Virus record (IMG/VR): IMGVR_UViG_3300021405_000012
Location: 3,855-67,854 of that record
Source of the DNA: a virus
Length of the DNA stretch: 64,000 nt
Reading direction: 5' to 3' (one strand)
Of this stretch, positions 1,108 through 18,146 are shown piece by piece (position 1 is the first letter of the stretch; each line of letters opens with the position of its first letter). The notes below the pieces were generated by a model. That model did not search any database. It saw only the letters and a list, made by a program, of their open reading frames with translations, and had not been told where the DNA came from. The translations under genes were made by a program, and so were the position numbers.

Positions 1108-2295
1108 TTACTCGCCGTCGAAAAGACTCCCTTGACGAAACACACGCAATCCCGGCCGTTGCCGAAACGCATCTCCCATGCGCTGGCCGACTTCTTCTTC
1201 GTTCGCGCGGGTGTACCAGTTCATCGTCTCGATGGAGGCCCACCCCATGTACTCCTGAATGTCATTCAGCGCCTTGCCCGACTGCACTAGGTGGGTTGCT
1301 GTGCTGTGCTTCAAGGTATGCGTTTTAGCCTTTCGGGAGGGGATGCCTGCTTCAAGAGCGTAGCCGTGGACGAGCTGCCAAAACCGAACCCTGGTGATGG
1401 GAAACAACCGTTCTTTGGGGTCGCCGCGACGTTTGGGAGTGGCTGGGGGCGGCTGGGGGATGGTGGCCGAAGGCAAATTGCGCAATTCCGCTTCTGCGGC
1501 CTTCCGTCGGGCGGCGGGCAGCAGTTTGCGGGCACCGGGGCCTTTGGGGGGAGGACCGACCAATCCGCTCTCTTCCATCAGGTCGATCAGATGGCACGCC
1601 CGGCCGTATGCGATTCGCAGGCCTCGCTGCAACACCGACGTCGACACTTTCCCCGCCGCGATCACCAGTTTGACGGCGTCCCCGTAGAGCGGATCCACGC
1701 CTGAGTTTTCCTCGGAATCGACGATTTGGCCAATTTGCCGATTTGGCAAGGACTTAACACTCCTCGTACAAGGTAAAGTTTTTTCACGGGTCAAAGTGCT
1801 GCATTTCCGGGCCTCGCGAGCACCGCCTTTTACCCCATAGTTTGAGCGGTTCGCGAGCCAATCTTCTATGGCCGCCTTCTCGTTGAGCAGCGGGTTTTGA
1901 TGGTGCAGAAGGGGGTGTGTGGTTTCGTCGGATCCCTTGCCGCGCTGCACCCGGATTTCCCCGTCTTTGAAGTTGGCTGCGGTAAGGTTGGTGACCTCGG
2001 AGGCCCGCAGCCCGTGAACGTAGGCGACAAGGATCATCAGCCAGTCGCGGTGTCGGTGCTTTTTGGCGGTCGCGAGGAGAGCCTGTAGTTGCTCATCGCT
2101 GAGCGAGACGGGCGGCTTCCTGCGGCGTCTGGGTTTTTTGGGCACTTTGGGTTTTGGCGGGGCGAGGGAAAACGGGGCGGCACTCACGGCAGCCTCTCCG
2201 ACGAGTTCCTTGATTCTGGCGAAGAGCGAATCTACTTCAACCCAGATGGGCGACTCAGGTTTCGGAACAACGAACAGCTTGGCAGCGCGGGGCAC
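1108..2295 (-). CDS. Tyrosine recombinase (FimB/Xer-like catalytic domain) with an inserted FtsK-gamma domain
   Basis: HGLRASE, RGKGS..TTHPL, HTLKHS.ATHL and MGW.SI..MNWYT catalytic motifs; insert DPLYGDAVKLVIAAGKVSTSVLQRGLRIAYGRACHLIDLMEESGLVGP matches the FtsK-gamma pattern. Confidence 0.88.
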   Translation of the reverse strand: MPRAAKLFVVPKPESPIWVEVDSLFARIKELVGEAAVSAAPFSLAPPKPKVPKKPRRRRKPPVSLSDEQLQALLATAKKHRHRDWLMILVAYVHGLRASEVTNLTAANFKDGEIRVQRGKGSDETTHPLLHHQNPLLNEKAAIEDWLANRSNYGVKGGAREARKCSTLTREKTLPCTRSVKSLPNRQIGQIVDSEENSGVDPLYGDAVKLVIAAGKVSTSVLQRGLRIAYGRACHLIDLMEESGLVGPPPKGPGARKLLPAARRKAAEAELRNLPSATIPQPPPATPKRRGDPKERLFPITRVRFWQLVHGYALEAGIPSRKAKTHTLKHSTATHLVQSGKALNDIQEYMGWASIETMNWYTRANEEEVGQRMGDAFRQRPGLRVFRQGSLFDGE

Positions 2296-2621: not shown

Positions 2622-3110
2622 TCAGAGGAACCTCAGCGCCAAGAAGTTGATCGTCAGATGTAAAACAGTGTCCACGATAATTAGCAACCAGACCGCCATC
2701 CACGCCGGGGTTTCCGGGGGATATCCCGTCGGACATGCGGAAAGGGGTGGCATTTGCCGTCTGAAGGCATGCTCCACTTTCCCGCGATCGACATTCGTCC
2801 AGAGGCCGGGGTGGGGAAGAGGGGGCGGCGTCACCCCGAACTGATCGTGCGACTCAAAGAACCACTTCACCGGCGGGCTCATCCAGTTCTTCACGTACAC
2901 GACGTACCGCGCCAGCCGGAGGCGGTCGATAACGTAGTGAGTTACAAAGATCATGGTCAGCGCGTTTCCAGACGGGTGCAACAAGAGAAACGTGGCGGAG
3001 TAGAGCGCTGCATGAATCACCGCAGGCAGGTTGGCTTTGGTTTTGTTCTGCGCCATCCAGTCAGATTGCAGGATGTAGTCGCCCCAGAGATGGCAGAGCA
3101 GTTGGAGCAT
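2622..3110 (-). CDS. DUF3307-like membrane protein
   Basis: HLWGDYILQSDWMA..K, H..LY, H..ID and D..LH pattern with hydrophobic helices. Confidence 0.75.
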   Translation of the reverse strand: MLQLLCHLWGDYILQSDWMAQNKTKANLPAVIHAALYSATFLLLHPSGNALTMIFVTHYVIDRLRLARYVVYVKNWMSPPVKWFFESHDQFGVTPPPLPHPGLWTNVDRGKVEHAFRRQMPPLSACPTGYPPETPAWMAVWLLIIVDTVLHLTINFLALRFL

Positions 3111-3111
3111 G

Positions 3112-3315
3112 TCAGACCTTTCCCGTCATCACATCGTTGAGGGTGAAGGTGGTCCGTCGGGGATGCCGGTCCTCGTAGAGCAGTTGTGCGAACATAGCGG
3201 CTTCGCGGGCTTCCATCGGCGTGAACTGGCCCTGCTCGATCGCCGCGCTCATCATGTCGACCAGGCTATGAAAGACGGGATCGTCGCGGTAGCGCTCGGC
3301 CAGAGTCGATCTCAC
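3112..3315 (-). CDS. Hypothetical protein
   Basis: GTG start overlaps the upstream stop (GTGA coupling). Confidence 0.6.
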   Translation of the reverse strand: MRSTLAERYRDDPVFHSLVDMMSAAIEQGQFTPMEAREAAMFAQLLYEDRHPRRTTFTLNDVMTGKV

Positions 3316-3821
3316 GCGCTCTTCTCCCGCACCTTCAGCGTGGGCGTCTTCGGCTCGGGTACCTCGCACTGCGAGTACAGTGCCAGCAGTTTGGTTGACA
3401 GCTTTTCGCCTTTGACGATGACCGCAGCCTCGGGATTGAGCGTCCAGCGGATCGTCTTCTCGAAGACCTTCTTCAGCGTGCCTGCGAGCTTAGCTTTGAC
3501 CAGCGCCAGCCGGAAGCGTTCGACGGCGGCCGCGTCAATCGACGTGGAGGACCCGAACGTCCCCATGGCCTCGAGCGTGATGCCGTGCAGGATCTTCGAC
3601 TTCTCGGCGTGCGCGCTGCCGTGGGCCCGCACCAGCTCGATGATTTCCGTTTTCAGGTCGGCGAGCTGCTCGGGTTTTGGCTTGTCGCCTTCTTTGTCAC
3701 CCTTCAGCTTTTCCGCGAGTTCGAGCTTAAATTCGAGCACAGCATCGTTGATCTCTTTGTCGAGGGCGCGATACTGCTCGCACTTTTGCTCAACCTCGGC
3801 GGGAGTGGGTGCGGGAGTCAT
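3312..3821 (-). CDS. Hypothetical protein with N-terminal coiled coil
   Basis: Coupled to both neighbours; GC-rich third positions. Confidence 0.7.
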   Translation of the reverse strand: MTPAPTPAEVEQKCEQYRALDKEINDAVLEFKLELAEKLKGDKEGDKPKPEQLADLKTEIIELVRAHGSAHAEKSKILHGITLEAMGTFGSSTSIDAAAVERFRLALVKAKLAGTLKKVFEKTIRWTLNPEAAVIVKGEKLSTKLLALYSQCEVPEPKTPTLKVREKSA

Positions 3822-4219
3822 GCAACAGACATCCTCGCTCGCTCGGATTGTTCGCCGGCAAAGAAGGCCTGCACGATCGCCGAGAAGATGTAGTCCTTCA
3901 GTCGCTGATTGAACGGCAGCTGCTCGTAGGGAACAAAGCAGGGGTGCTGCTTTTTCTCTGGGTCCTTGACCGGCCCATAGATCCAGCCGTCCCGCCGCTT
4001 TTCTTCCAACCAGCTTTCATGCGAAGCCGAAGGGCTCGCAGGTCGGCCAGCGCGGAGCTCGGTCAAATGAAACCGCACCCCGTTGATTGCGGAGACTCTT
4101 TGCCAGTCCGGGGCGGTGGCCCATTCGGGCTGGGATTCGTCGCCGATGGACAGGCAGTAAGCCCGGTTGGCCTCGTGGCAAATGCTGGCGATCTGTACTT
4201 CGTTGAGCGGATCCATCAT
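3818..4219 (-). CDS. Phage RyR-domain protein
   Basis: SHESW..EK..DGWIYGPVKDPEKKQHPCFVPYEQLP motif; GAGGAGG RBS. Confidence 0.85.
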   Translation of the reverse strand: MMDPLNEVQIASICHEANRAYCLSIGDESQPEWATAPDWQRVSAINGVRFHLTELRAGRPASPSASHESWLEEKRRDGWIYGPVKDPEKKQHPCFVPYEQLPFNQRLKDYIFSAIVQAFFAGEQSERARMSVA

Positions 4220-4238
4220 TTCCTCCTCTACGGCCTGG

Positions 4239-4496
4239 TCATGGGTGTTCGTAGCGTGTCTGCCCCGCCGGACGTCCCGGCACATCCTGATGCTCCGGCT
4301 TCATGCACATGGCAATCACGGCATGCAGTTTGGCGTCTTGCAGGTGGGTTTGCACGATGGCAAATTCGCGAGTGTTTTCCGCGCAGTAGCCGCGCAGAGT
4401 CTTCAGGGTGGCGGAGAATAGCTCACCGATTTGGAGCAGCTTGTGCTGGCCCTCTTCGTTGAGCCGGTAGGTGTCGAAAAGTGGGTCCATGGTCAC
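4239..4496 (-). CDS. Acb2/Tad1-like helical-hairpin protein (candidate nucleotide sponge)
   Basis: About 85 aa with Y-R-LNEEG near the N-terminus and REFAIVQTHLQDAKLHAVIAM..P at the C-terminus, resembling Acb2-type hairpins. Confidence 0.5.
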   Translation of the reverse strand: MTMDPLFDTYRLNEEGQHKLLQIGELFSATLKTLRGYCAENTREFAIVQTHLQDAKLHAVIAMCMKPEHQDVPGRPAGQTRYEHP

Positions 4497-7610: not shown

Positions 7611-10600
7611 TCACTGCGCGGCGGCCTCTGCCTTCTCAGTCTCCGCCCGTTCGCCCTTCTCCAGCAAGTTCATGCGCTTCTGGCGAACCTCGCGATGCAG
7701 CTCCTCCATTGCTTTCTTGTCACCGTCGCGCTTCGCGGCCTCGTACACGCGCATGATTTCCGAGTAGCTGAAGCCGTGAACCGTATCCTGCAACGGAGTC
7801 AGCCGGGCGCGTTCCCGGAGCTGCTTTTCCTGGGTGAGCGTGATCTGGTGTTTGGCGCGGGCCTCGGATAGAGGCTTCGAATCGCCCTTGCGCAGTGCGT
7901 CGAGAATCTCCCGGCGCCGGCTGTAGACTTGCTGCTCTTCGGGATCAACTGCCTCAGTGCCGACTTTCGTCATGGCGATATCCGCGGCGACACGCTCGGC
8001 CGGAGTCTTCACGCTCTTCAGTCCCAACTGCTGTAGCCAGAATTTCTTTCTTTGCTCGGCGCTTGACCAGGCCCGTTCGGCTTGCCCGATCTGGCCCATT
8101 TCGCCGATGACGTAGTGGCCGAGTTCGTCGCGCTGCGTCGACCAGGTCGCGTGCGGATCGACAATGTTTCGCCCGGAATACGACTCGCGGTTGTTCAGCA
8201 GGTCCATGCCACCCTTGAGCAGCGGGCTCGGCATCAGCACGCGCTGGGCGGTGGCGCCGACCCCGGCTTCCCGGCGGGCCATCTTGTCGACGGCTTCCAT
8301 GAAGCCGACCAAGCCGAAACGCTTCACCGCCAGATGCGCATCGTGGCCGAGTTCTTTGGCTTTGTCGTCGAGCCAAGGCAGGATGCCGTACATCAGCAGT
8401 GCCAGCATGGCCCACTGCGACCAGGCAGTACCAACTTCGCCCGCTTTGGAGTTGTCGCCGGTGGGCTCTTTCAGTCCCAGCGCCGCCTTGCCCATTTCGA
8501 AGGGTGCTTTAAGCAGGTGGTAGTGCCAAGGGCCGAAGATGAACACTTTCGGGCTGCGGAAGGCCTTCGAGAGCATAGTGCTGTCGGCGATGCGTGTGGG
8601 CACGCGGTAGTCGGCCAATATGCGGACCGTGTCCGCCAGCGCATCCTCGAACGACATACCCTTTGCCTGCTTCTCATAGGCCGACTGCAACAGGAAGAAA
8701 TCGCTGGAATGCCACGCCACGAAGTTCGAGAGCGTCTTCAGCGGGCCCAGGATGTAGGCGTACTTGGCCTCCGTGAGTCCGATCGCGTCGGCGATGCGCA
8801 TGGCCCACGGTTCTTTCTTGCCCAATCCCTCGGCCAGCCGTTCGTAGAAGAGCTTGGTGACATCCTGCGTCAGTTCGCGGTGGGATTGCAGCGCGGCGCC
8901 GGCATCGAGCGCAGCCTTGAAATCGTCGTTCTTGGTGAGCACCGCATGCAGCGCTTTCGAGCTGGTGCGGTACATGCGCACGTAGTTGGTGGGGAAAAAC
9001 CCGTGCAGGCCTTTCTCGACCAGCCAGTCCATGCCGACGTTGCCGGCGTGCATGAGAGGGTTGAGCAACATCACTAGGCGCATGAATTTGCCGACCTGGT
9101 CGAGCACGTTCGCCTCTCCACCCTTCAGGCTGTCGGCGTAGCGATCAAGGACCTCGGACGTCCGGGGCTCGAAGTAGTAGCCATGGAACTGCGGGAGCTG
9201 CGTGGACTTCCAGCCCTTGGGCGGATTGCCGCTGCCTTTCCAGGCAATGTCTTTGAATTCCGGCGAGGCTTTCAGGCCTTCGATGAAGTGCATCGCATCG
9301 AGCGCCGATTCCAACTGGATATTGGAAACGAGCAGAGACGCCAGCGCCGAATGATAATATTCCATGTCGGTGTTGTCCTCGATCTCGCGCGTGGTCGCCT
9401 GTACCACCTTCCAGTCGTAGCCGTCCGGCCCTTCGACGATCTTGCCCTTATCGTAGAACGCGGAATTTGGCTGGCCTTCAGGGAAGGTCTCATTCTCTTC
9501 GTCGGTTCGGCCGTTTGCGTTCTTGATCTCCCCGAGTTCGGTGGGTTCGCCTTCCTGCCACATGGTCGCGTGGCCGCCTTTGATTGAGATGACGCGCCGG
9601 TCCCCGGAATCATTCTCGATGGCCATCATGGTGCGGGTCTTCGTCTGGGGCGCGGATTTCGAGAGGCCTTTCCCGCCCACACTGGTGCGAATCTTTTGCG
9701 CGATGCGATCGAGCGCGCCGCCTTTGCCCTTCACCGTGCGGTGGACGTAGTTCTCAAGGGGCACGCCGCCGGCCGTCAGTTCGGTGTAGGCCTTCTCGTT
9801 GCGCTCCGCGATCGGCAGCATGTCATCGAAGCGGTTCTCCTGGGCGTCGGTGAGTTCGTCGCTTTCCTGGTCCTCGAGGTGGTGGTAGATGGCTTCGTCA
9901 TCGGCCTTGGTCAGCCCGGCTTTCTTGGCTTCGAGGAAGGCATCGCGGGCGCGCAGTTTGCGGGCATCTTTGCGGGTTTCGAGGGTTTCGAGCTGGTGCT
10001 CGATGTCGCGGGCGATCTTGGTAGCGGCTTTGACGTCTGTCAAGTAAGACTTTACAGCGCCGGCGGCGTCGACGGCCGCTTCGCCGAGCTTCGAGAGGTT
10101 GGCTTCTCCCGACTCGCCGGTCAGCAGGTTCTCTGCCTTCGGTGCGGGTGCTTCCTTCGGTGCGAACGATTTCGCTTCTTCGGCCATGCTGGGAGAGGCG
10201 TAGAGCGTGGTTTTCTTCAGCAGCTCCTCGATGACCTGTGTCTCCTTCCCCTTGGGGATAGCCGCCCGCATCGTGTTCTGCTGCGAAACAAAATCGCCGG
10301 TTAGGTCGGTGATGCCGTGGTCCAGGAAGTACTTGCCGCCGCGCGCCTTGGCTCTCGGCGTTACGATCGCGAGCTTTCCGGCATCGTTGACCACGCGCAC
10401 GTTTCCATCGCGGCTGGCGATGCCCATGTCCTCGATGCGCGGGTTGACGGTCTTGCGCAGGAACTTCAGCGCGTGCGCGGCGTCCCGCAGCCGGTAATCG
10501 CCTTTGGTGTTCTTGCTGAAGTCGAACTTCTTAGGCAGCAGAATGCCCTGCTCAGTTGTGCCGTCGGCCTTGGTGAAGTTGATGATCGTGCCGCGCGTGT

Positions 10601-13600
10601 CGGTCAGTTCGCCATAGGCTGCCAGCAGATTGCCGGTGATGATCTTGGCAGTCTCGCGGGTCTCGGCTTTCGTGCCGCGGAAAATGTCCTCCGGTTTGTC
10701 ATAGAGTTTCCGTTCCTCGATGCGCTGCACCTGCGTGGCTGGAACGGCGAGTGTCCGCAGGGAGCCGTTCGTCGCCAACGTGACGTTGATTTTACTGAGA
10801 GCGAACGGATTGCCGGTGCCTTTGTGGGTGCTGCGGATATTGACAACGGCGGCGTTATAGAGATCGCCATTGATTTCGACGCGCCAGGTTGAGCCGATCT
10901 CGTGGTCGCGGATGAAGTCCCGCGCCGTGCGCGCAACGATTTCAGATTGCCCCACCGTGGGGCTCGCTGGGTCGAGGGTCTGTTTGTAGTACGTGAGCTC
11001 GCCGTCTAGTTTCTCGATCAGCTCTTTTGAGTGCGCGGATGGCGTCTTGCCGTCGAGGTGCTCTTTGATGCTGGCGGTGACTTCATCGGGAGCCAGCGGT
11101 TTGCCCTGAGATTTGATCGAGTACTCCCCGTAGGTTGCGGCTTCGCCAAAGGGTGAAGCGGGATTGGTCGCCGCCACCAGTTCGTAGCCGCGGGTTTCCT
11201 TGGCGTCGTAATCGAAGGTCTTCGGCTCGAGCTCGTTCTGGTTGGTTGAATCGAGGTAAGCGATATAGTCGTTGTACTGCTGCTCGACCTCGTTATAGAA
11301 CGCCTCTTGCACTTTGACCGGAAGGATCGCCAACCGCCCAGTTGCCTTGCGGGCGATGTCCTCAGTCGGGCTGCCGTCCTCGTTGAGCGGAGTGACGTGC
11401 AGCATGCTCGCGAGTTCCGCGTTGTCTCCGAGATAGTTTCCGACAATCTGATCGCCGTACTTGTTGAGCATGTCCGCGGCTTTTACCGAGGTCGCGGATT
11501 CTGTGTTGCTCGAAGTGTTCGCGTTCAGCGACTTCATTTTCTTCGACAGCAGGGCCGTCGGGCGCTTCTCTGCCGGCAGGTCGGCGTTGAGGATGGTGTA
11601 TCCGGGTAGCCGCACTTGGCCGGTGCGGTTGATTCGCCCCAGCATCTGCATGAAGATGTTGATGTCCTGCGCCGGCTGGGCAACGATCATATGGCGCGGC
11701 TTCTGGTCTTTGAACTTCTCGGAAGCGTGGGCGCTGATGCCCGTCGAGCCAGCCACATTCAGCAGAAGGGAATCCAGGCGGCCATCGTTGAACCGGCGAA
11801 TGGTCTCGACTTTATCGTTCTGCTCCTTCAGCGGGACGTGCGACAGCTTCGGCTGCTCTGGGTTGCTGTAGTCCACGGACAGATTGCGGCCGGTGATTTC
11901 AGCCACGGTGTAGCCCGCATCCTCGATGCGCTGGCGGATCCAGTCGATCGGTGACACCGGAAGATCAATCTTCAGCTTGTCGATGGTCTTCTGGGCGTCA
12001 TCATAGGCATGCCGGGTCACGGGATCCAGTTCGTCGAGGGGAACGTACTTCTTGGTTTTGTTGCCCATGGCGTCGGTGATCTGCAAGTACCGGCTGCGAT
12101 CAAGGGCGCGCGAGAGCACGTTGCGGTAGTCGAAGTCTTCAAGCCGATCTCCGGGCTGTAATCCCTTGTCGCCAACGTAGGCCGAGAGGAATGAACCCAT
12201 CGTGTTATCGACGGCAATGACTGGCTTTTCGCCGCGCTTGATTGACGCGATCGCATCATCGGCTGCGGTGTTGGCCTTGATGCCCAGCAGCATCTGGCGC
12301 ACGAAGTTGTGAACCACCGAGGAGAACTCGGTGTGGTGTACCGACTTGCCGGCCTCGTTTCCACCGCCAACGATTTTGTTGGCCTTGTTCTCTGCGACAG
12401 CCGCCTTCTGTGCCTCTCCGACGTAGGTCGTATGGAAGGACTTGTCGGCGTCCACGATCGCGCGCAGGGCGCTGGTGGCACCGTCGGCAATCTTGGTGTG
12501 TTCGGCCCGGTGCTCGGTATCCACCTTGGTCGCCATGCTGATGCCGTCGTAGGAACGCTCCCGGCGGAACATCTGGCCAGCCTTCACCAGATTGTTCGAG
12601 ACCACGGTTTGCAGGGGCAGGCCGCCGTCTTTCATGGCCTGCACCAGTGTGCCGCTGTCGCCGATGGCTTCGCCCATGTCCGTCTTGAAATAAAGCGGCA
12701 TGTTGTCGGGGCGCTTTGCGTAGGTGGCCGAGAGGTAGGTCACGCCTTTGGCGTCGGCCAGCAGGCCACGAAGGAAGTCGCCGGTGTTCGACGAACCGCC
12801 GGCGTTGTGGGATTCGTCCAGAACAAAGATCGCTTTCCGCGCCAGCGACATAAGCATTCCCTGCTGGGCGTTGTGCACATTGACCTGCGAGTAGGTCAGA
12901 AACACCGCGTTGCGGCCGGCGGGCAGCGTCCCAGTGTTGCGAATCTGCTCTATCAGCTTTCGATGATTGGGCTTGTTGGCGAAGGCGCGGCTGCCGTCCG
13001 GGCGCGTGATCCACTCGTCTGAATTCACAATGAAGGGATTCACGTCATCCGTTCCGATGTCCGAGAGATCGCCGTACATATCGGTGAACAGGGACGGCGC
13101 TTTGGTGATGAAGACGGGGATATCGCCTTTCTTGGCGGCCCAGCGGATGATGGCCGCAGCCTGGCGTCCTTTGCCGATGCCGGTCTGATCGGCAATGACG
13201 ATGGCTTTGCCCTGCTGGATTTCGTGGATAGCTGCGGCAACCGAGTCAACCTGCAACCCCATAAAAGCGTTGTGCAGGTCGTCGACCGAGGGATAGCCAA
13301 GTTCCTTCGCCACGTACTTGTCGAGGTTGCCGACTTCATCTTCGAGGACGTTCATCGCCTGCTCCAGAGGCGATTTCATGTTTACCGGGATCAGGACGTT
13401 GGCGTCTTTTTTCTCCGAGGCCGGGGTGTAGGGAGTTTGGAAGTCGTTCGACTTCGGACTTATTGCGCTAGGGCTTCCGTTATCTGGTCGAGAGTTGGCA
13501 ACTCGCTCGGGTCGAGACTCAGGCTTGTGCCCTTTTTCCAGTCGATCCGAGTGAGCAATGTCTGCATCTGGCCGCAGGCTAGGATCTGAGACGGCCACTC

Positions 13601-16600
13601 TTCCGTCTCGTCCTGCATTGCGATCTGATACAGGTCCGACAGATTCTCCGGATCGCTCGACAGCACCTGCTGCGCCTGCTCCGGGTCGTCCTCGATCAGT
13701 TTTCTCAGGCGCTGCTCCAGGAGTGTTTCGTACAGGCTGCGATTCATCGGCTGGCTGCCGCTGTAGGGAACTGTCAGCCCCTCGCTCCCGTGCAGGTCGG
13801 GGCTCGGCCGCCATGATTTCACTGAACTGCTCATACACCTGATCCCATGACTCTAGTCGTTGGATGCTTTCAACCGGAGGGGCGATTGCAGAAGATGTTT
13901 GCCTTCCGCCGATCGCGATAACCCGAACTGGCCACGCCGCACCCTGGCGCCCATAGAGTTTTCCCTCGATCTCGAAATGCCCACTCACATCATAGTGCGA
14001 ATAGAGCCAATTTAGGAAGATATTGTCATCGGTGCTTTGGCCGCCGGGGGTGAACTTGTTGGCTCCGAGGATCAGGGTAGCCTTCCCGTCGTCCTTCATG
14101 GCGTCAAGGGCTCGAGCTGCAATCAGGTGGTCGATCTGGCCGATCTTGTAGCCGTCTACACGTTCCTTCGTCGCTTTGCCCTGGGCGTCTTTCACCGAGC
14201 CGAACGGCGGGTTGGCCACAACCGCGTCGTATGCCTTACCCAGAGTGGCCTTATGTGCTGGGCTCCACGCCTCTGCGGCATCCCGTTGGGTGACTTCCTG
14301 GTATCCCTGCTTTTGCAGTGCAGCCATGCGCTCCGGGTTGAGCTCGTTCACCCGCGTCTTCTTGGGGTTCGCTGCGATGGTGAGCATGCCGTTGCCGGCA
14401 GTCGGCTCGTAGAGACTGCTGTTCTTATCGACTCCCGCCAATTTGTCCGCGAGGTAGGCCAGCGGCGCGGGTGTGCTGTAGGCCTGGTTCTCGATGCTGG
14501 TCGAGGTACGGATGTTCAGGTTTGGCTGGGAATTGTAGAGATCGACCAGTTTGTCGAAGGTCTCGCGTGTGTTCTCACCTGCGTCAACGATATCGCGCGC
14601 GCGCTGGACCACGGCAACTTCGAGTGCTTCCTGCGCCTGCTTCATTCGAGCCGGGTCCGCAGGCTTGCCGTCGAAGGCGTCTACGAGCTTTTTCAGCGCT
14701 GGGTTGTCTTTCGGCATTTCACCGGCGGCGATCTTCTCCAGCAGGTGTTCGGTGAGAGCGGCGGCGCCTTTGCTGGTTTTGCCTTTCTGGATGTCGGCCC
14801 AGCCGGGTTTCTTCGGCTCTTCTGCGTGCGGCCGCGCTTCGTAGCTGCCCTCCGGGGTGGGAACGATGTCGGCCTTCTTGACGGTGAATTTCGGCTTCTC
14901 CTCGCCTTTCTTAAGCCCATGCGTCACGAAGCTGGGCAGCACGTACTTGGCGGGCTTCTCTCCCGCGAGCTTGACCACCTCCTGCTTGCCCTGCCGATCG
15001 GTGATCGCGATTTCACTAACTGTGAACTGTTTACCCTTGGTCAACTCCATGCCGACGTGCCTCTCTGCTCGGTCGGGGCGGACGTAGGCTATAGTTGCGT
15101 GAGGTCGGTACTCGAAGTCGGGCTTTTTGAAATCGCCATGCTTCTCCAGTTCCCCATTGATCCGGTGCAACTCCGGCGCCTCAATCGGTGCGATGATGAC
15201 GGCGGCGCCGTCGCTGTGCTCGCTGGGCGGGAACTTGTCAGTTTTCCCGAGCGTAGCCTCGAACGGCGCGAGGCCTGCCAGATACTTCTTGACGCCTTCG
15301 ACGTCGTCGCCCTTGATCCCGTAGCGTACCGTTACATGATTTCCGCCCTCTCCGATATCTTTGCCGTCTCCAGCGAGGTCCGCTTTCGAGATGCGGGCCC
15401 GAGCGGCTTCTAGAGCTTTGGCAGCTTCGCTCTCTTTGGGAATGTTGGCCTGGGTTGATCCGAATTTGTAGAGCGTCTCAGGTTTGTCGGCTTCACCGCG
15501 GTAAAGTCGGACTGTTCCTGCCCCCCGCGGTACTGCCGGCTTCTCCGCCCGCACCTTCTGCCCAACGTCCGGGCCCGTCTCAATCGAGTGATCGAAGCCG
15601 TGCTGCGTGATGTTCCGCTTTGCCGGGAAGACGGCACCTTTGGCTGGCTCGGAACTTCCGCCCTTGAGGCCCATGCTCTTGGTGACGATCCCGCCCGGCT
15701 CCGGCTTTTCTCCCAACTCCATTTCGAGGTTGGTCGAGTGCGTCACCACCAGTGGCCGCTTGCCTGCCTTCGCCATGCCCTCGATTTCGGCGAGCGCTTC
15801 GTCCTGGCGCTCCTTGGCCTGGTTATAGGATTCCCCGCCTTTCGGCACTTCGTCAGGATGGGCTTTGTAGTGATCCCGGATGTGCTGGATGTCGGAAACC
15901 TGCTTGCCTTCGGTTTCCGGCATACGCTGCGGCCGCAACCGTTCGTCGGCTTCGACGGGTACGCCCAGAGCTTTGCCGACAATGTCGGCGGTCTCTTTCG
16001 CGCGCGGCAAGTCTGATGTCACGATGGCAGTGGGTGGATTCCCTTTCAGGTCCGCCGCCATCTTCTGGGCAGCGGCTTTGCCACGCTCATCAAGACTCTC
16101 ATCCGACCAACCCGCGACAGTTTCTCTTCCTCCGGCTTGGTCGAGTTTGGTGGCGCCATGACGCCCGAATATGATCTCTCCGGCCTTGATGTCAGTCTTG
16201 GCGGTTTGCTCAACTTGCTTCTCGCCGGCGGCGGAGAGTGTCGCGTGGTGACGCTTGGGGATGGTGGTAGTCGATTTCGGCTCGGACATCCAGGGCAGCT
16301 GGGTAGGCTCGTCGAATTTCACCCGCACCGTGCGCAGCCCGCCGATCAGGCCATCGTGCTTGATTTCGGCTTCGGTGTTGCCGGCGGCGCCGATTTGGAT
16401 CCGGCTGCCCTTTGCGAAGCTTCCAGCAACTCCTTGGCCCGGGGCAGCAGCTCCAGATACTTCTCCGCCACCTGTTCGAGTGTCAATGTTTCGCTCAGGC
16501 AGGTTGGTTCCGGCAGCGGCGGCGGTGGATCCGGCAGCAGCAGTCGAAACGTCCTCGCGCTGATTAGCTCGATCGTGCTCGTCTGCTGCGAGTACCGCTG

Positions 16601-18146
16601 GCTTCGAAGTTTCACTGGGTATCTCCTCTTCGCCCACGATTGTAGGTGCGACATCCACATTCGTGGACGCTGGGATTGGCTCTTCGGCTAGAATTGCAGG
16701 CTGAGCTTGCCCGAGCTCGGCGGCACGCCCGCTACGGGTTTGCCGTGACCCCCTGGTTTCCTTGGGGGCAGCCGCCGGTTTGGTAGCTGCCCCCGATTTG
16801 CCCGTCTCCCCAGAGTTCCGGGCAAATTCCTTCTCCTGGCGCGCAACTTCGTCGTTGATGATCGATTGGGCGACCGAGGCGGCTTGTTTCTCATTTTCGA
16901 TAATGTGTAACTGGCCGTCTGGCCCAACGATTTTCCCCTGTTGCAGCAACACTTTAGACAGGGTTTCATGGGCTTCCATGACGCCTTGGGCGCGCAGGTT
17001 CTCCGGCAGCTTGACCAGCAGTTTGGCGATTCCAGAGACCGTATCCGAGGAAATGTGGCCCTGCTGGATGTCCTGGGGCAGAGGTGGGCCTTGCGGGGTT
17101 GGCTCCGGTTCTACAGGGGGCATGCCACGCACCACGCGGGCGGCTGCGGTGCGTTTGGCGGCGGCGGCGACCAGAGCGCTGGCTCCGTTGTCGGGCGGCC
17201 CTGCAGGGGCGGTTTGCTGGCCTTCGATGGTGGGAGGCTCCAAACCGGGACCCGCAGGCCGATTTCCCCGAGGGATGACAGTCTCACCCCGAAACGACCC
17301 TACTCCACCGCGCAGGCGGATTTCTTCAGGAGTGACCGCGATGCCAGCGCCAGCACGGCCATTGGCAACGGTTGCAGCCGCCCGAGTCCCTTCCGGACCG
17401 CTTTCCATGGAGAACTTGGGCCGCAGCCGGTTGGCGTCTGCGGCGAAGTAGGCGCTCAGCCCGGTCTTGGTGGCAATCTCCGAGCGTTCCATGGGGGTGA
17501 GTTCATCCCAGTGGTCGTGGAGCTGCTTGGCTCCGTCGATCGCGCCCGCGCCGAGCATGGTGCGGAAACCGCCGCTGATGATTTTTTGCAGGATGGGTCG
17601 GGCGGCCGCGCTCGCGAAGAAAGGCCAGTTGCGCACATCGCCGACCGTGCCGCCAGCGAATTCGCCGACACCCTTGATGGCTCCCATGGTCTTCGGGGCA
17701 TAAAACTCCATCGCTTTGACCGCATCGCCTTGGGGCGCTCCCGGTTTCAGTTCTGGCCGGAGAATCGGTTGCAACACAACTGAAGCCGCGCCCTCGGCAA
17801 TCTCGCCGCCAGCCTTCGCGGTGCGCGCAGCTGCGCGTTCGAACGGCTGCACCAGTGTGCGGTTCGCCAGATCCAGCGCGGGCACCGCCGCCTGCGGCAC
17901 CATTTCGCCGAGACGTTCTTCGGGCGTGGGCTGGTTCGGAGCGGCTTGATAGCTGGAACCGGTGCGCTGGGCGGGGGGCAGAACTTCGGGGTGAAGGATG
18001 CTGGGACGGGCTGGGGCTGCGGCTACAGCGGGCGGAATCGGCTCTTCGCCGACTATCTGGAACTTCGGGGCGGAGGAAGGGCGGGGTTGAGCGCTGGGCG
18101 CAGGGATGGGCTCTTCGCCAACAATCTGATAGGTGGGGTCGGGCAC
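7611..18146 (-). CDS. Giant polyvalent virion/ejection protein (DarB-like): His phosphatase, 2H phosphoesterase, amino-methyltransferase, Strawberry-notch SF2 helicase, helical C-terminal region
   Basis: RHG...TSDLPRA..TA...VVTHS; HVT...HAT; YSTPAPLA, EPTAGNG, NPPF; DQTGIGKGRQ, DESH, SAT, QMLGRINRTGQ; last of the ejection-type genes. Confidence 0.88.
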   Translation of the reverse strand: MPDPTYQIVGEEPIPAPSAQPRPSSAPKFQIVGEEPIPPAVAAAPARPSILHPEVLPPAQRTGSSYQAAPNQPTPEERLGEMVPQAAVPALDLANRTLVQPFERAAARTAKAGGEIAEGAASVVLQPILRPELKPGAPQGDAVKAMEFYAPKTMGAIKGVGEFAGGTVGDVRNWPFFASAAARPILQKIISGGFRTMLGAGAIDGAKQLHDHWDELTPMERSEIATKTGLSAYFAADANRLRPKFSMESGPEGTRAAATVANGRAGAGIAVTPEEIRLRGGVGSFRGETVIPRGNRPAGPGLEPPTIEGQQTAPAGPPDNGASALVAAAAKRTAAARVVRGMPPVEPEPTPQGPPLPQDIQQGHISSDTVSGIAKLLVKLPENLRAQGVMEAHETLSKVLLQQGKIVGPDGQLHIIENEKQAASVAQSIINDEVARQEKEFARNSGETGKSGAATKPAAAPKETRGSRQTRSGRAAELGQAQPAILAEEPIPASTNVDVAPTIVGEEEIPSETSKPAVLAADEHDRANQREDVSTAAAGSTAAAAGTNLPERNIDTRTGGGEVSGAAAPGQGVAGSFAKGSRIQIGAAGNTEAEIKHDGLIGGLRTVRVKFDEPTQLPWMSEPKSTTTIPKRHHATLSAAGEKQVEQTAKTDIKAGEIIFGRHGATKLDQAGGRETVAGWSDESLDERGKAAAQKMAADLKGNPPTAIVTSDLPRAKETADIVGKALGVPVEADERLRPQRMPETEGKQVSDIQHIRDHYKAHPDEVPKGGESYNQAKERQDEALAEIEGMAKAGKRPLVVTHSTNLEMELGEKPEPGGIVTKSMGLKGGSSEPAKGAVFPAKRNITQHGFDHSIETGPDVGQKVRAEKPAVPRGAGTVRLYRGEADKPETLYKFGSTQANIPKESEAAKALEAARARISKADLAGDGKDIGEGGNHVTVRYGIKGDDVEGVKKYLAGLAPFEATLGKTDKFPPSEHSDGAAVIIAPIEAPELHRINGELEKHGDFKKPDFEYRPHATIAYVRPDRAERHVGMELTKGKQFTVSEIAITDRQGKQEVVKLAGEKPAKYVLPSFVTHGLKKGEEKPKFTVKKADIVPTPEGSYEARPHAEEPKKPGWADIQKGKTSKGAAALTEHLLEKIAAGEMPKDNPALKKLVDAFDGKPADPARMKQAQEALEVAVVQRARDIVDAGENTRETFDKLVDLYNSQPNLNIRTSTSIENQAYSTPAPLAYLADKLAGVDKNSSLYEPTAGNGMLTIAANPKKTRVNELNPERMAALQKQGYQEVTQRDAAEAWSPAHKATLGKAYDAVVANPPFGSVKDAQGKATKERVDGYKIGQIDHLIAARALDAMKDDGKATLILGANKFTPGGQSTDDNIFLNWLYSHYDVSGHFEIEGKLYGRQGAAWPVRVIAIGGRQTSSAIAPPVESIQRLESWDQVYEQFSEIMAAEPRPARERGADSSLQRQPADESQPVRNTPGAAPEKTDRGRPGAGAAGAVERSGESVGPVSDRNAGRDGRVAVSDPSLRPDADIAHSDRLEKGHKPESRPERVANSRPDNGSPSAISPKSNDFQTPYTPASEKKDANVLIPVNMKSPLEQAMNVLEDEVGNLDKYVAKELGYPSVDDLHNAFMGLQVDSVAAAIHEIQQGKAIVIADQTGIGKGRQAAAIIRWAAKKGDIPVFITKAPSLFTDMYGDLSDIGTDDVNPFIVNSDEWITRPDGSRAFANKPNHRKLIEQIRNTGTLPAGRNAVFLTYSQVNVHNAQQGMLMSLARKAIFVLDESHNAGGSSNTGDFLRGLLADAKGVTYLSATYAKRPDNMPLYFKTDMGEAIGDSGTLVQAMKDGGLPLQTVVSNNLVKAGQMFRRERSYDGISMATKVDTEHRAEHTKIADGATSALRAIVDADKSFHTTYVGEAQKAAVAENKANKIVGGGNEAGKSVHHTEFSSVVHNFVRQMLLGIKANTAADDAIASIKRGEKPVIAVDNTMGSFLSAYVGDKGLQPGDRLEDFDYRNVLSRALDRSRYLQITDAMGNKTKKYVPLDELDPVTRHAYDDAQKTIDKLKIDLPVSPIDWIRQRIEDAGYTVAEITGRNLSVDYSNPEQPKLSHVPLKEQNDKVETIRRFNDGRLDSLLLNVAGSTGISAHASEKFKDQKPRHMIVAQPAQDINIFMQMLGRINRTGQVRLPGYTILNADLPAEKRPTALLSKKMKSLNANTSSNTESATSVKAADMLNKYGDQIVGNYLGDNAELASMLHVTPLNEDGSPTEDIARKATGRLAILPVKVQEAFYNEVEQQYNDYIAYLDSTNQNELEPKTFDYDAKETRGYELVAATNPASPFGEAATYGEYSIKSQGKPLAPDEVTASIKEHLDGKTPSAHSKELIEKLDGELTYYKQTLDPASPTVGQSEIVARTARDFIRDHEIGSTWRVEINGDLYNAAVVNIRSTHKGTGNPFALSKINVTLATNGSLRTLAVPATQVQRIEERKLYDKPEDIFRGTKAETRETAKIITGNLLAAYGELTDTRGTIINFTKADGTTEQGILLPKKFDFSKNTKGDYRLRDAAHALKFLRKTVNPRIEDMGIASRDGNVRVVNDAGKLAIVTPRAKARGGKYFLDHGITDLTGDFVSQQNTMRAAIPKGKETQVIEELLKKTTLYASPSMAEEAKSFAPKEAPAPKAENLLTGESGEANLSKLGEAAVDAAGAVKSYLTDVKAATKIARDIEHQLETLETRKDARKLRARDAFLEAKKAGLTKADDEAIYHHLEDQESDELTDAQENRFDDMLPIAERNEKAYTELTAGGVPLENYVHRTVKGKGGALDRIAQKIRTSVGGKGLSKSAPQTKTRTMMAIENDSGDRRVISIKGGHATMWQEGEPTELGEIKNANGRTDEENETFPEGQPNSAFYDKGKIVEGPDGYDWKVVQATTREIEDNTDMEYYHSALASLLVSNIQLESALDAMHFIEGLKASPEFKDIAWKGSGNPPKGWKSTQLPQFHGYYFEPRTSEVLDRYADSLKGGEANVLDQVGKFMRLVMLLNPLMHAGNVGMDWLVEKGLHGFFPTNYVRMYRTSSKALHAVLTKNDDFKAALDAGAALQSHRELTQDVTKLFYERLAEGLGKKEPWAMRIADAIGLTEAKYAYILGPLKTLSNFVAWHSSDFFLLQSAYEKQAKGMSFEDALADTVRILADYRVPTRIADSTMLSKAFRSPKVFIFGPWHYHLLKAPFEMGKAALGLKEPTGDNSKAGEVGTAWSQWAMLALLMYGILPWLDDKAKELGHDAHLAVKRFGLVGFMEAVDKMARREAGVGATAQRVLMPSPLLKGGMDLLNNRESYSGRNIVDPHATWSTQRDELGHYVIGEMGQIGQAERAWSSAEQRKKFWLQQLGLKSVKTPAERVAADIAMTKVGTEAVDPEEQQVYSRRREILDALRKGDSKPLSEARAKHQITLTQEKQLRERARLTPLQDTVHGFSYSEIMRVYEAAKRDGDKKAMEELHREVRQKRMNLLEKGERAETEKAEAAAQ
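13460..13747 (-). CDS. Nested acidic helical protein in the +1 frame within the giant gene (start could be 13834)
   Basis: MNRSLYETLLEQRLRKLIEDDPEQAQQ...; codons end mostly in G/C in this frame while the giant frame switches to GGA/CGA/CCT/GCA. Confidence 0.65.
   Translation of the reverse strand: MNRSLYETLLEQRLRKLIEDDPEQAQQVLSSDPENLSDLYQIAMQDETEEWPSQILACGQMQTLLTRIDWKKGTSLSLDPSELPTLDQITEALAQ
16346..16615 (-). CDS. Second nested protein in the +1 frame within the giant gene
   Basis: GAGGAG-N7-GTG start; G/C-ending codons in the nested frame; amphipathic helix LTLEQVAEKYLELLPRAKELLE. Confidence 0.5.
   Translation of the reverse strand: MKLRSQRYSQQTSTIELISARTFRLLLPDPPPPLPEPTCLSETLTLEQVAEKYLELLPRAKELLEASQRAAGSKSAPPATPKPKSSTMA

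Follow-up and report, generated by a model that had tools for sequence, protein, structure and literature searches.

The window (the whole stretch of viral DNA analysed, 64,000 nt long) carries on its minus strand, at positions 1108..2295, a gene for a 395-aa tyrosine recombinase with an internal FtsK-gamma domain, as delineated by the ORF, its translation and Pfam. The ORF starts with GTG, is open over 395 aa and ends with a stop codon at 1108-1110 (minus strand). A database protein search found an identical 395-aa protein already on record; one other protein, an 84% relative of the window recombinase, starts at the same place. In a six-frame profile search of the 67,854-nt record, a single tyrosine recombinase and a single gamma domain were detected, both of them in this gene.

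The match to Phage_integrase (PF00589; E 2.8e-26, 92.8 bits versus a cut-off of 27.1) falls into two stretches: profile positions 3-86 correspond to aa 65-150 and positions 104-171 to aa 299-367 (six-frame search of the record). As 148 residues stand in place of 17 profile positions, the net insert is ∼131 aa, in agreement with an earlier reading made without database searches (the sequence-only reading), which had described a catalytic domain split by an insert of ∼135 aa. The first half of the domain (aa 65-150; 1846..2103, minus strand) holds R97 (Arg I), E100, K120 (Lys) and a helix, aa 139-153, from the end of which the insert exits; the second half (aa 299-395; 1111..1401, minus strand) holds H326-x-x-K329, W352, the nucleophile Y361 and the C-terminal helices. 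The active site reads R97-E100-K120-H326-K329-W352-Y361; a HMMER alignment to E. coli XerD pairs R97 with R148, K120 with K172, H326 with H244, K329 with R247, W352 with H270 and Y361 with Y279. Six of these seven residues are canonical (R97, E100, K120, H326, W352, Y361), and Arg II is represented by K329; the HxxK motif and the Trp at the H/W position, both pointed out in the sequence-only reading, are borne out by this alignment. Lys at the Arg II position is reported to be rare among tyrosine recombinases (0.5%), and the Cre variant R292K to have only moderate activity with a ligation defect (PMC2943603); the window recombinase, too, may be active with K329.

In the AF2 model (pTM 0.56), the catalytic core has pLDDT >90; structural comparison of its fold gave Z 20.4 with XerA (5hxy_D; 176 residues aligned) and Z 15-18 with XerH, lambda Int and Cre. 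The catalytic domain is preceded by 64 aa (2104..2295, minus strand) with a predicted helix at aa 16-37 and then a proline-/basic-rich tail of the KPRRRRKPPVSLS type. The earlier impression that a core-binding domain is absent holds: Pfam gave no match to PF02899 or PF13495, and structural matches to recombinases begin only at model residue 57-63. A search of the ESM Atlas returned generic integrase clusters only (0.86-0.87).

The insert and its gamma domain

The insert, also read from the minus strand, is made of a winged helix held between two linkers. Linker 1 (aa 151-199; 1699..1845) opens with the family motif GVKGGA and is otherwise predicted to be disordered (AF2 pLDDT <50 at aa 157-161 and 167-197); its GC3 is low, 0.49 versus 0.64-0.78 in the rest of the gene. 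The FtsK-gamma winged helix (aa 200-262; 1510..1698; GC3 0.78) comprises helices 1 and 2, the recognition helix 3 (GRACHLIDLME) and the wing (GLVGPPPKGPGARKLL). Linker 2 (aa 263-298; 1402..1509) has a short helix (260-268) and then a disordered Pro/Arg-rich stretch, with pLDDT <50 at aa 269-287.

The match to FtsK_gamma (PF09397; E 4.2e-18, 65.3 bits versus a cut-off of 30.6, profile positions 3-60 of 63) covers aa 200-258 (nt 1522-1698) and differs by no more than 4 nt from the segment 1518-1694 that had been read as a gamma winged helix from the letters. Profile scores of the insert (65.3 bits, FtsK_gamma) and of its flanks (92.8 bits, Phage_integrase) support both domain assignments of that reading. 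The six-frame search of the record gave 68.5 bits for FtsK_gamma, and the domain also matches phrog_13700 (5e-15, PHROGs). It is modelled with pLDDT >90; model residues 200-266 superimpose on the KOPS-bound gamma of Pseudomonas aeruginosa FtsK (2ve9_A) with Z 11.2 and rmsd 1.2 Å (62/62 residues, 42% identity), and the Foldseek TM of the domain is 0.88. The FtsK motor domains are absent from the protein, with no Pfam match to PF01580 or PF17854.

The best PDB sequence match of the window protein, in three stretches, is 5dcf_A. Its structural alignment (Foldseek, VIA) covers the core only (model 63-352 on chain 2-172) and says nothing on gamma placement; both domains together are not alignable by sequential aligners because gamma stands elsewhere in the sequence order of 5dcf. 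A complex prediction of gamma (aa 195-268) with its own core halves (aa 1-166 and 288-395) had a score of 0.00 (mark 0.32) and speaks neither for nor against docking.

Recombinase family, likely source of gamma and conservation

Relatives of the window recombinase are compact recombinases, likewise devoid of a core-binding domain, from phages, prophage-like contigs and MAGs of Acidobacteriota (Terriglobales). K329 is present in 25 of the 25 aligned relatives; H326, H330 and Y361 are invariant too, as are R118, K120, G121, S122 and E139, and W352 is kept in at least 90%. In the N-terminal tail, K54, P55 and R59-L65 are nearly invariant across the family. The loop at the insert site, on the other hand, ranges in length from nearly absent (a few residues) to far more than 100 low-complexity residues, so that the position of gamma could be explained by a permissive site without any function. 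Integron integrases are known for a lineage-specific insert close to this place in the fold. In the alignments of the window family, HxxK, W352 and the split catalytic domain are family-wide traits, not tied to gamma.

Gamma itself is rare in this family. A search for the same architecture elsewhere yielded one other distinct carrier, the 84% relative; both carriers score as PF09397, and they are two among 54 recombinase-type matches. A region search with aa 185-270 retained two of 333 candidates, the 84% relative and the window protein itself. Among 57 proteins, the gamma HMM matched the window protein (twice), the 84% relative and two FtsKs, and no remnant of gamma was seen in the loops of relatives (next best E 1.1). 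A scan of IMG/VR with the gamma segment gave 85 pattern matches, none of which was confirmed; a scan of IMG/VR with the family alignment gave 20 loci, none with gamma (tblastn, best E 3.4); and among 20 GenBank phage records none had both the recombinase and gamma parts covered. None of the best 149 of 8469 gamma-like representatives (the 84% relative aside) resembled either recombinase half (phmmer, E up to 10); beyond the best 150 of the 8469, separate fusions of a recombinase to a more distant gamma may exist. We characterize gamma as a probable lineage-specific capture, with two distinct proteins known.

The likely source of the insert is a host-type ftsK. The window gamma is 58-62% identical in amino acids to Terriglobales FtsK gamma, and its DNA is 81.7% identical to a Terriglobales ftsK over 71 nt; its recognition helix, GRACHLIDLME, compares with GRAAHLIDLME in three Terriglobales FtsKs, whose gammas are nearly invariant among themselves. 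Terriglobales genomes that harbour recombinase relatives also encode a gamma-bearing FtsK and XerD-like proteins; the score of one such XerD just reaches the curated cut-off (329.7 versus 329.6 bits).

The window recombinase is itself neither XerD nor XerC. It scores 87.7 bits versus 329.6 for XerD (TIGR02225) and 75.0 versus 335.15 for XerC (TIGR02224), below the curated cut-offs, has no N-terminal SAM-like (core-binding) domain and carries Lys at Arg II. The sequence-only reading had called the core FimB/FimE-like. The likeness stands with regard to size, as these invertases also combine a catalytic domain with a short N-terminal extension, and some members of the window family are annotated as FimB/FimE at source; membership does not, since the models NF007370 and NF007371 match (E 1e-14 and 6e-13) with 54.7 and 48.8 bits versus cut-offs of 221 and 222. 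Unlike FimB/FimE, the window family has HxxK, a basic-proline N-tail, a variable internal loop and an origin in phage contigs.

Conservation could be assessed in one pairwise comparison, that of the window protein with the 84% relative. The catalytic halves are 95-96% identical (9 of 199 positions changed), the gamma wing 95% (18/19), the linkers 62% (45/73; 60% in linker 1, 63% in linker 2) and the segment from helix 2 to helix 3, which carries the recognition helix and the XerD contacts, 52% (14/27). The wing is far better kept than the linkers (binomial P 0.0013), which indicates that a part of the gamma domain is under purifying selection; the helix 2-helix 3 segment differs from the wing (Fisher P 0.003) and not from the linkers (Fisher P 0.49). 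As read from these two sequences, the scaffold is kept and the reading surface changes, as in a DNA-binding domain; a reading surface diverging as fast as the linkers would also be expected from relaxed selection.

Four of the six E. coli XerD-contact residues are kept in the window gamma (Q1288=Q223, R1289=R224, R1292=R227, I1293=I228) and two of six in the 84% relative (changes R1289K, R1292N, I1293V and N1296A). On the side of the core, the mappable docking positions of E. coli XerD correspond to Q71 (E119), A75 (Q123) and a deletion (I127). A Terriglobales XerD keeps none of E183, E184 and Y187 of the E. coli protein; residue-level arguments on Xer contact, whether for or against, are therefore not transferable to this phylum.

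Possible roles of the tethered gamma

FtsK gamma is a textbook small domain, both a reader of a polar chromosome motif and a switch of a tyrosine recombinase. To our knowledge, laboratory fusions are the only evidence that a tethered gamma suffices, and in a literature search covering few subscription journals we found no published description of a natural tyrosine recombinase with FtsK gamma. A natural fusion offers a ready-made test of whether the logic of tethered gamma has been used in evolution or whether gamma serves as a portable DNA reader. It also points to a previously undescribed recombinase family from a poorly known group, the phages of Acidobacteriota, in which the second catalytic Arg, present in nearly all tyrosine recombinases, is a Lys, and to a permissive loop in the recombinase fold that accepts a whole domain and could be useful for engineering targeted recombinases.

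Several known systems come close. The background given in the sequence-only reading on gamma, on XerD activation and on engineered fusions is in print: gamma is reported to activate XerD, XerD-gamma and XerC-gamma fusions to be self-activating, and a tethered 9-residue gamma peptide to be enough (PMC5052618; Keller 2016), and engineered gamma-Xer fusions are described by Grainge 2011 (PMC3130261). In these XerD- and XerC-FtsK gamma fusions (PDB 5DCF), as in the window protein, a catalytic domain is joined to gamma by flexible linkers; they are man-made and have gamma at the C-terminus, whereas the window protein is natural and has gamma inside the catalytic domain. Bacillus phages Sam46 and Sam112 are reported to have a small terminase with an N-terminal FtsK_gamma (PMC8190038), likewise a DNA-acting phage protein with a host-like gamma that presumably reads DNA; as described there, its partner is Terminase_2, its gamma is terminal and not inserted, and the host phylum is another. 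Phage-borne Xer-type recombination independent of FtsK is reported for XafT of TLC-phi and for IMEX elements (PMC6744903, PMC9226527); XafT, compared here by its description only, is portrayed as a separate small protein without a recombinase domain that activates host XerD.

Proteins with tandem gammas (2-3) or with gamma next to a defence domain, which also have gamma outside FtsK, make up most of the best 149 of 8469 gamma-like representatives (the 84% relative aside). PF09397 is present in 149 of these 149 and the FtsK motor in 26; a good many are short and have 2-3 gammas in tandem, and among the Pfam families listed (25 of 46) are TIR_2 (4), Mrr_cat (2) and nSTAND1 (3). Gamma is a widely reused DNA-binding module.

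The reading that we rank first, at a little under an even bet, is one of those offered in the sequence-only reading, that of a functional compact phage recombinase with gamma as a tethered DNA-targeting module. In one lineage, the gamma of a host-type ftsK would have landed in a variable, disordered surface loop of the recombinase and would be held there by two flexible tethers of ∼45 and ∼35 residues. The tethered gamma could read a short motif beside the core site of recombination, either a KOPS-like host motif or an accessory site of the phage, and so stand in for the arm- or core-binding domains of other recombinases, which confer DNA affinity and site choice; several gammas of a recombinase dimer or tetramer may cooperate, as the three gammas of the FtsK hexamer do on one KOPS. 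Targeting is favoured because both domains are folded with high confidence and the linkers with low, because there is no core- or arm-binding domain, and because the recognition helix is almost that of Terriglobales FtsK. In E. coli, the reading of KOPS is reported to rely on R1300, E1303 and E1306 of the gamma recognition helix (PMC2680272); isolated gamma is reported to bind KOPS poorly and to require three copies (PMC3384302), which fits display on a multimeric recombinase. Against targeting stand the gamma-less relatives, which manage on their own, so that gamma cannot be essential to the chemistry of the family. Furthermore, neither a candidate motif nor a recombination site was found: KOPS of E. 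coli type (GGGNAGGG) is not enriched there (5 versus 11.8 expected), a motif that is E. coli's and may not be the host's.

One could speculate instead about a natural self-contained recombination switch, in which the built-in gamma would turn on its own core, an adjacent subunit or the XerD of the host, and a phage-encoded, Xer-like reaction would proceed with no need of the septal FtsK pump. If true, it would be a natural equivalent of the engineered XerD-gamma fusions, the first of its kind, and could serve in dimer resolution of the circular ∼67.7-kb phage genome or in integration close to a site flanked by KOPS; we consider it rather unlikely, and some of the evidence cuts against such Xer-centred proposals of the sequence-only reading. 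Self-activation, in which the tethered gamma would dock on the rear face of the catalytic domain, either its own or that of an adjacent subunit, and switch it on allosterically, is similarly doubtful. It would agree with the engineered fusion 5dcf_A being the best PDB match, with the four contact residues kept in the window gamma and with the exit of the insert from the C-terminal end of helix aa 139-153; this helix opens with the invariant E139 and is, by its position after the third strand, the counterpart of the XerD helix with E183/E184, the gamma docking site, at its N-terminus. Activation of XerD by a tethered gamma, even by the peptide FtsK 1289-1297 (PMC5052618), is a reported precedent, and since Lys at Arg II is reported to weaken Cre (PMC2943603), an activator could help. 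However, gamma-less relatives conserve E139, HxxK and the remainder of the core just as well, the mappable XerD contact residues are not kept, and the loss of contacts in the 84% relative is accompanied by no sign of co-variation in the core. The dependence of XerD on an activator stems from its particular part in the XerCD heterotetramer; for the compact recombinase family we see no hint of an inactive resting state. Still less probable, in our view very improbable, is that gamma engages host XerD or competes with FtsK, making recombination at or near dif independent of division, with the phage enzyme in the part of an adaptor comparable to XafT of TLC-phi. The host-like gamma, in which the E. 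coli contact residues Q, R, R and I are retained, the co-occurrence of XerD-like genes and gamma-bearing FtsK in Terriglobales with recombinase relatives, and the reported precedents of IMEX elements and XafT are in line with this; yet the catalytic set of the protein is complete and conserved in the family, tyrosine included, which would be needless in an adaptor, no dif-like site was found, and host FtsK gammas are nearly invariant whereas the contact segment is at 52% between the phage carriers. A surface fitting a conserved host XerD should not drift that far, which counts against a hijack of host Xer.

Gamma might also be a passenger, captured by chance from ftsK in a loop that tolerates anything, without a role and heading for decay. 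The loop range seen in relatives, the presence of gamma in two carriers only among the 54 recombinase-type matches, the divergence of helix 2-helix 3 at the pace of the linkers and the atypical GC3 of linker 1, as if of foreign or non-coding origin, would all suit this idea. We regard it as improbable: both carriers still score as PF09397, the predicted gamma fold has pLDDT >90, the wing is kept against the background of the linkers, the frame is open and the GC3 of gamma matches that of the gene.

The phage genome and the kind of reaction

For the targeting module ranked first, we infer that gamma binds DNA at a motif beside the recombination site, and that the reaction would be integration, dimer resolution or inversion. 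The record is a circular phage genome of ∼67.7 kb. Its other ORFs were typed with Pfam (on 10 + 10 + 46 ORFs) and PHROGs (on 10); no recognizable repressor, partition or replication gene was among them, and consequently neither integration nor plasmid-like dimer resolution is favoured for the phage. Contigs of two runs, which drop rare forms, showed no strand-change joints and no inversion or integration junctions. A terminal overlap was looked for and not found in a 66,437-nt Terriglobales MAG contig with a recombinase relative. There is no tRNA near the recombinase gene within the window; among 23 related loci, a tRNA-Leu is present in one, at a distance of 3.3 kb from the recombinase gene.

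The intergenic region upstream of the gene has no significant RNA structure (z -1.22), and inverted repeats upstream of int in seven relatives followed no common pattern. In the window, a perfect 13-nt inverted repeat lies upstream of the gene (2450-2462 and 2579-2591, 116 nt apart); by a hand estimate, ∼0.6 such repeats are expected by chance in 64 kb, so that a single one is close to the chance level. Matches of the other ORFs of the record include terminase, DNA methylase, a radical-SAM-like protein, DUF3307, RyR and HNH, as well as peptide deformylase, a cold-shock protein, a Fis-type HTH and the SU10 adaptor.

Recombinase with an inserted FtsK-gamma domain

The recombinase ORF lies at 1108–2295 (minus strand; 395 open codons, GTG start). 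Pfam Phage_integrase matched its product in two separate stretches (E 2.8e-26, 92.8 bits against a gathering score of 27.1), and FtsK_gamma (PF09397) matched residues 200–258 (E 4.2e-18, 65.3 bits against 30.6). A six-frame search of the record placed integrase profile positions 3–86 on residues 65–150 and positions 104–171 on residues 299–367, with 17 model positions replaced by 148 residues; PHROGs assigned the flanks to integrase families and residues 189–263 to an FtsK/SpoIIIE-like family. The sequence-only reading had described a catalytic domain split by an insert with an FtsK-gamma core, and had proposed searching the insert against FtsK_gamma and the flanks against Phage_integrase; with both matches above gathering scores, its observation held in every point, coordinates of the insert core included.

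The NCBIfam models XerD, XerA, XerC, integron integrase and FimB/E-type invertase all matched far below their cut-offs; by curated thresholds the protein is thus outside both the Xer and the FimB/E families. The NCBIfam FtsK equivalog matched residues 199–248 only, and, unlike in FtsK, gamma is here not part of a translocase. The top PDB sequence match was the engineered XerD-FtsK gamma fusion 5dcf, in three pieces; architecturally, the window protein is a natural counterpart of such engineered fusions. We characterize it as a tyrosine recombinase into which an accessory, putatively DNA-binding domain of a known family is inserted.

Catalytic residues were numbered by HMMER alignment to E. coli XerD and the residue list of Gibb et al. 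2010 (PMC2943603, Table 1). R97, K120, H326, K329, W352 and Y361 correspond to XerD R148, K172, H244, R247 (Arg II), H270 and Y279, respectively, and E100 provides the Glu in the R-x-x-E motif. The HxxK variant and the W at the H/W position, both noticed earlier, are thus seen in the alignment as well; Arg II (K329) is the sole non-canonical catalytic position. [quoted passage not shown] 2010, PMC2943603); K329 is thus a rare residue and, by analogy, would not be disabling.

Recombinase family and origin of gamma

Among 5.8 billion proteins the window protein had 56 matches, 54 recombinases and 2 FtsK proteins (matched via gamma alone). Only two of these recombinases contained PF09397, the window protein and P0003 (392 aa, 84% identical, from the assembly of a public run); we call this pair the carriers. 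In a 25-member alignment K329, H326, H330, Y361, K120 and R118–S122 are invariant, with W352 and R97 near-invariant, which makes HxxK and W traits of the whole family, independent of gamma. Common to the family (alignment A1) are a basic, proline-rich N-terminal motif, KPRRRRKPPVSLS, where the core-binding domain would be, the loop-start motifs GVKGGA and KMQQSxxxV and the loop-end motif KPAGG; all of these lie outside the catalytic core and may serve as linear motifs for binding DNA or a partner. Loop length between the motifs is highly variable, from near nothing in ∼10 IMG/VR relatives to ∼100 or more low-complexity residues in four. Gamma was absent from all 20 IMG/VR relative loci examined, and the gamma HMM detected no remnant of it in other family members. 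As the relatives in named genomes belong to Terriglobales and Acidobacteriaceae MAGs, the phage host is most likely an acidobacterium.

A HMMER search with the gamma query (residues 185–270) over 1.84 billion representatives gave 8469 gamma-like proteins at E ≤0.001. In the best 150 of these 8469 the only recombinase was P0003; PF09397 was present in all 149 others (the FtsK motor in 26), and none of the 149 showed similarity to either recombinase half. The 149 others (P0058–P0206) are mostly short proteins, ∼150–350 aa, in which two or three gammas follow each other in tandem, resembling the engineered three-gamma KOPS-binding constructs described in PMC3384302, but natural; in a few, gamma is joined to TIR_2, Mrr_cat, nSTAND1, SLFN or response-regulator/receiver domains. 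We found no GenBank phage with recombinase and gamma parts together and, in the literature searched, no description of a natural recombinase-gamma fusion; the nearest published case we saw has gamma at the N-terminus of a phage small terminase (PMC8190038).

The phage gamma is 58–62% identical to the FtsK gammas from three Terriglobales genomes, which are near-identical among themselves, and the segment coding for helix 2 to helix 3 has 81.7% nucleotide identity over 71 nt to one Terriglobales ftsK. Given this likeness in both protein and DNA, gamma most likely derives from the ftsK of an acidobacterium, through a capture that is not very recent. Linker 1, preceding gamma (1699–1845), has GC 0.50 and GC3 0.49 versus GC3 0.64–0.78 in the remainder of the gene; its origin may be different from that of the recombinase and also from that of the part derived from ftsK. 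A 17-nt inverted repeat, 82% complementary (1472–1488 and 1723–1739), flanks the gamma-coding part (aa 192–269) almost exactly; it is probably due to chance, since these 8 kb contain another repeat that is equally good.

Possible role of gamma

An AlphaFold2 model, built on a 36-row alignment of compact relatives and 22 single-gamma sequences (A4), had pLDDT >90 in both catalytic halves and the insert core, and <50 at residues 157–161, 167–197 and 269–287. The modelled core matches XerA (Z 20.4), XerH, lambda Int and Cre; modelled residues 200–266 match KOPS-bound P. aeruginosa FtsK gamma with Z 11.2 and rmsd 1.2 Å over 62 residues.

A comparison of the two carriers, a single pair, showed 91/96 and 99/103 identical residues in the catalytic halves (95–96%) and 45/73 (62%) in the linkers. 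Within gamma, identity was 13/17 (76%) in helix 1, 14/27 (52%) from helix 2 to helix 3 and 18/19 (95%) in the wing. Helix 2 to helix 3, the segment with the surface for reading and contact, diverges as fast as the disordered linkers (P 0.49), as might be expected of a DNA reader tracking a changing target, or of relaxed constraint. That gamma is a mere passenger seems rather unlikely to us: the wing is much better conserved than the linkers (P 0.0013), which means that gamma is not just decaying. Alternatively, tethered gamma could switch on its own recombinase, a reading that we consider unlikely, though less so than the passenger one; a contact surface fitting the near-unchanged catalytic core should not diverge like linkers. 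The same holds for a surface fitting conserved host XerD, and hijacking of host XerD by the phage gamma appears the least probable of these readings.

Gamma would then best be read as a DNA-targeting module tethered to the recombinase, a tentative preference to which we give somewhat less than an even chance; the probability left after all four readings goes to roles we have not thought of. Besides the divergence pattern, three points favour this reading: the recognition helix, GRACHLIDLME, is close to that of host-type Terriglobales FtsK (GRAAHLIDLME); the window protein has no DNA-binding domain other than gamma; and firm KOPS binding by gamma needs several copies (PMC3384302).

Comparison of contact residues with E. 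coli does not decide the role of gamma. According to Keller et al. 2016 (PMC5052618), E. coli gamma touches XerD by Q1288, R1289, R1292, I1293, G1294 and N1296, at the ends of helices 2 and 3, with E119, Q123, I127, E184 and Y187 on the XerD side; KOPS is bound by the same gamma surface, and a tethered FtsK peptide, 1289–1297, suffices. The corresponding positions in the window protein are Q223, R224, R227, I228, A229 and G231 (4/6 E. coli residues kept; 2/6 in P0003). Recombinase-side positions mappable by alignment differ from XerD (Q71, A75 and a deletion). The insert exits from the end of helix 139–153, after the third strand, the place of the XerD helix with E183/E184; this helix begins with an invariant Glu, equally invariant in gamma-less relatives. 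One Terriglobales XerD, aligned to that of E. coli, carries Val, Pro and Lys at E. coli positions 183, 184 and 187, and therefore the E. coli contact map is not transferable to this phylum.

The fusion, based on two metagenomic sequences, would surprise a specialist in Xer or phage integration; it makes directly testable whether a recombinase driven by tethered gamma has arisen in evolution.

Phage genome and recombinase neighbourhood

The IMG/VR record (67,854 nt) is rated complete and classed ‘linear’; however, its last 126 nt repeat positions 12–138 of its start, and in an independent assembly of the probable source run this DNA forms a single 67,716-nt contig with a different starting point. 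The genome is thus circular or circularly permuted, ∼67.7 kb, without host flanks. Identical short contigs occurred at low depth in a second soil study (run X2). Recognised phage genes code for large terminase, DNA methylase, HNH, SU10-type adaptor, radical-SAM-like, DUF3307 and RyR-domain proteins; the 46 ORFs of alignment A5 also included peptide deformylase (E 5.6e-39), cold-shock domain (6.5e-29) and Fis-type HTH (9.4e-08) proteins. Profile searches of the phage ORFs recognised no repressor, partition or replication genes, and no att site or tRNA was found in the window. Candidate reactions of the recombinase are integration of the phage, dimer resolution in a circular replicon and inversion of a segment. 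The terminase genes are followed downstream by one ORF of 3,511 codons (7611–18146, minus strand).

All genes near the recombinase described here are on the minus strand. The radical-SAM-like ORF (249–1172) has a weak match, E 4e-4, below cut-off, and a CxxxCxxC motif; taken at its longest it would overlap the recombinase 3′-end by 65 nt. On the other side are the DUF3307 membrane protein (2622–3110), a 169-aa protein without Pfam or PHROGs family match (3312–3821) and the RyR-domain protein (3818–4285). Homologues of the 169-aa gene (54–62% identity, tblastx) are found 1–2 kb upstream of the recombinase here and in five IMG/VR contigs (L005–L009), which places the recombinase in a conserved phage neighbourhood; the 169-aa protein is possibly an accessory factor of the recombinase.

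The intergenic region upstream of the recombinase gene (2296–2621), whose RNA fold was not significant (z −1.22), contains 4 of the window's 19 GCCCCGG sites within 193 nt, where they form inverted pairs at 2423/2453 and at 2582/2609 (Poisson ∼1e-4 after correction). A perfect 13-nt inverted repeat (2450–2462 and 2579–2591) flanks a bidirectional terminator-like hairpin at 2485–2508. The GCCCCGG pairs and the 13-nt repeat may act as operators or recombinase sites, or may form RNA hairpins.
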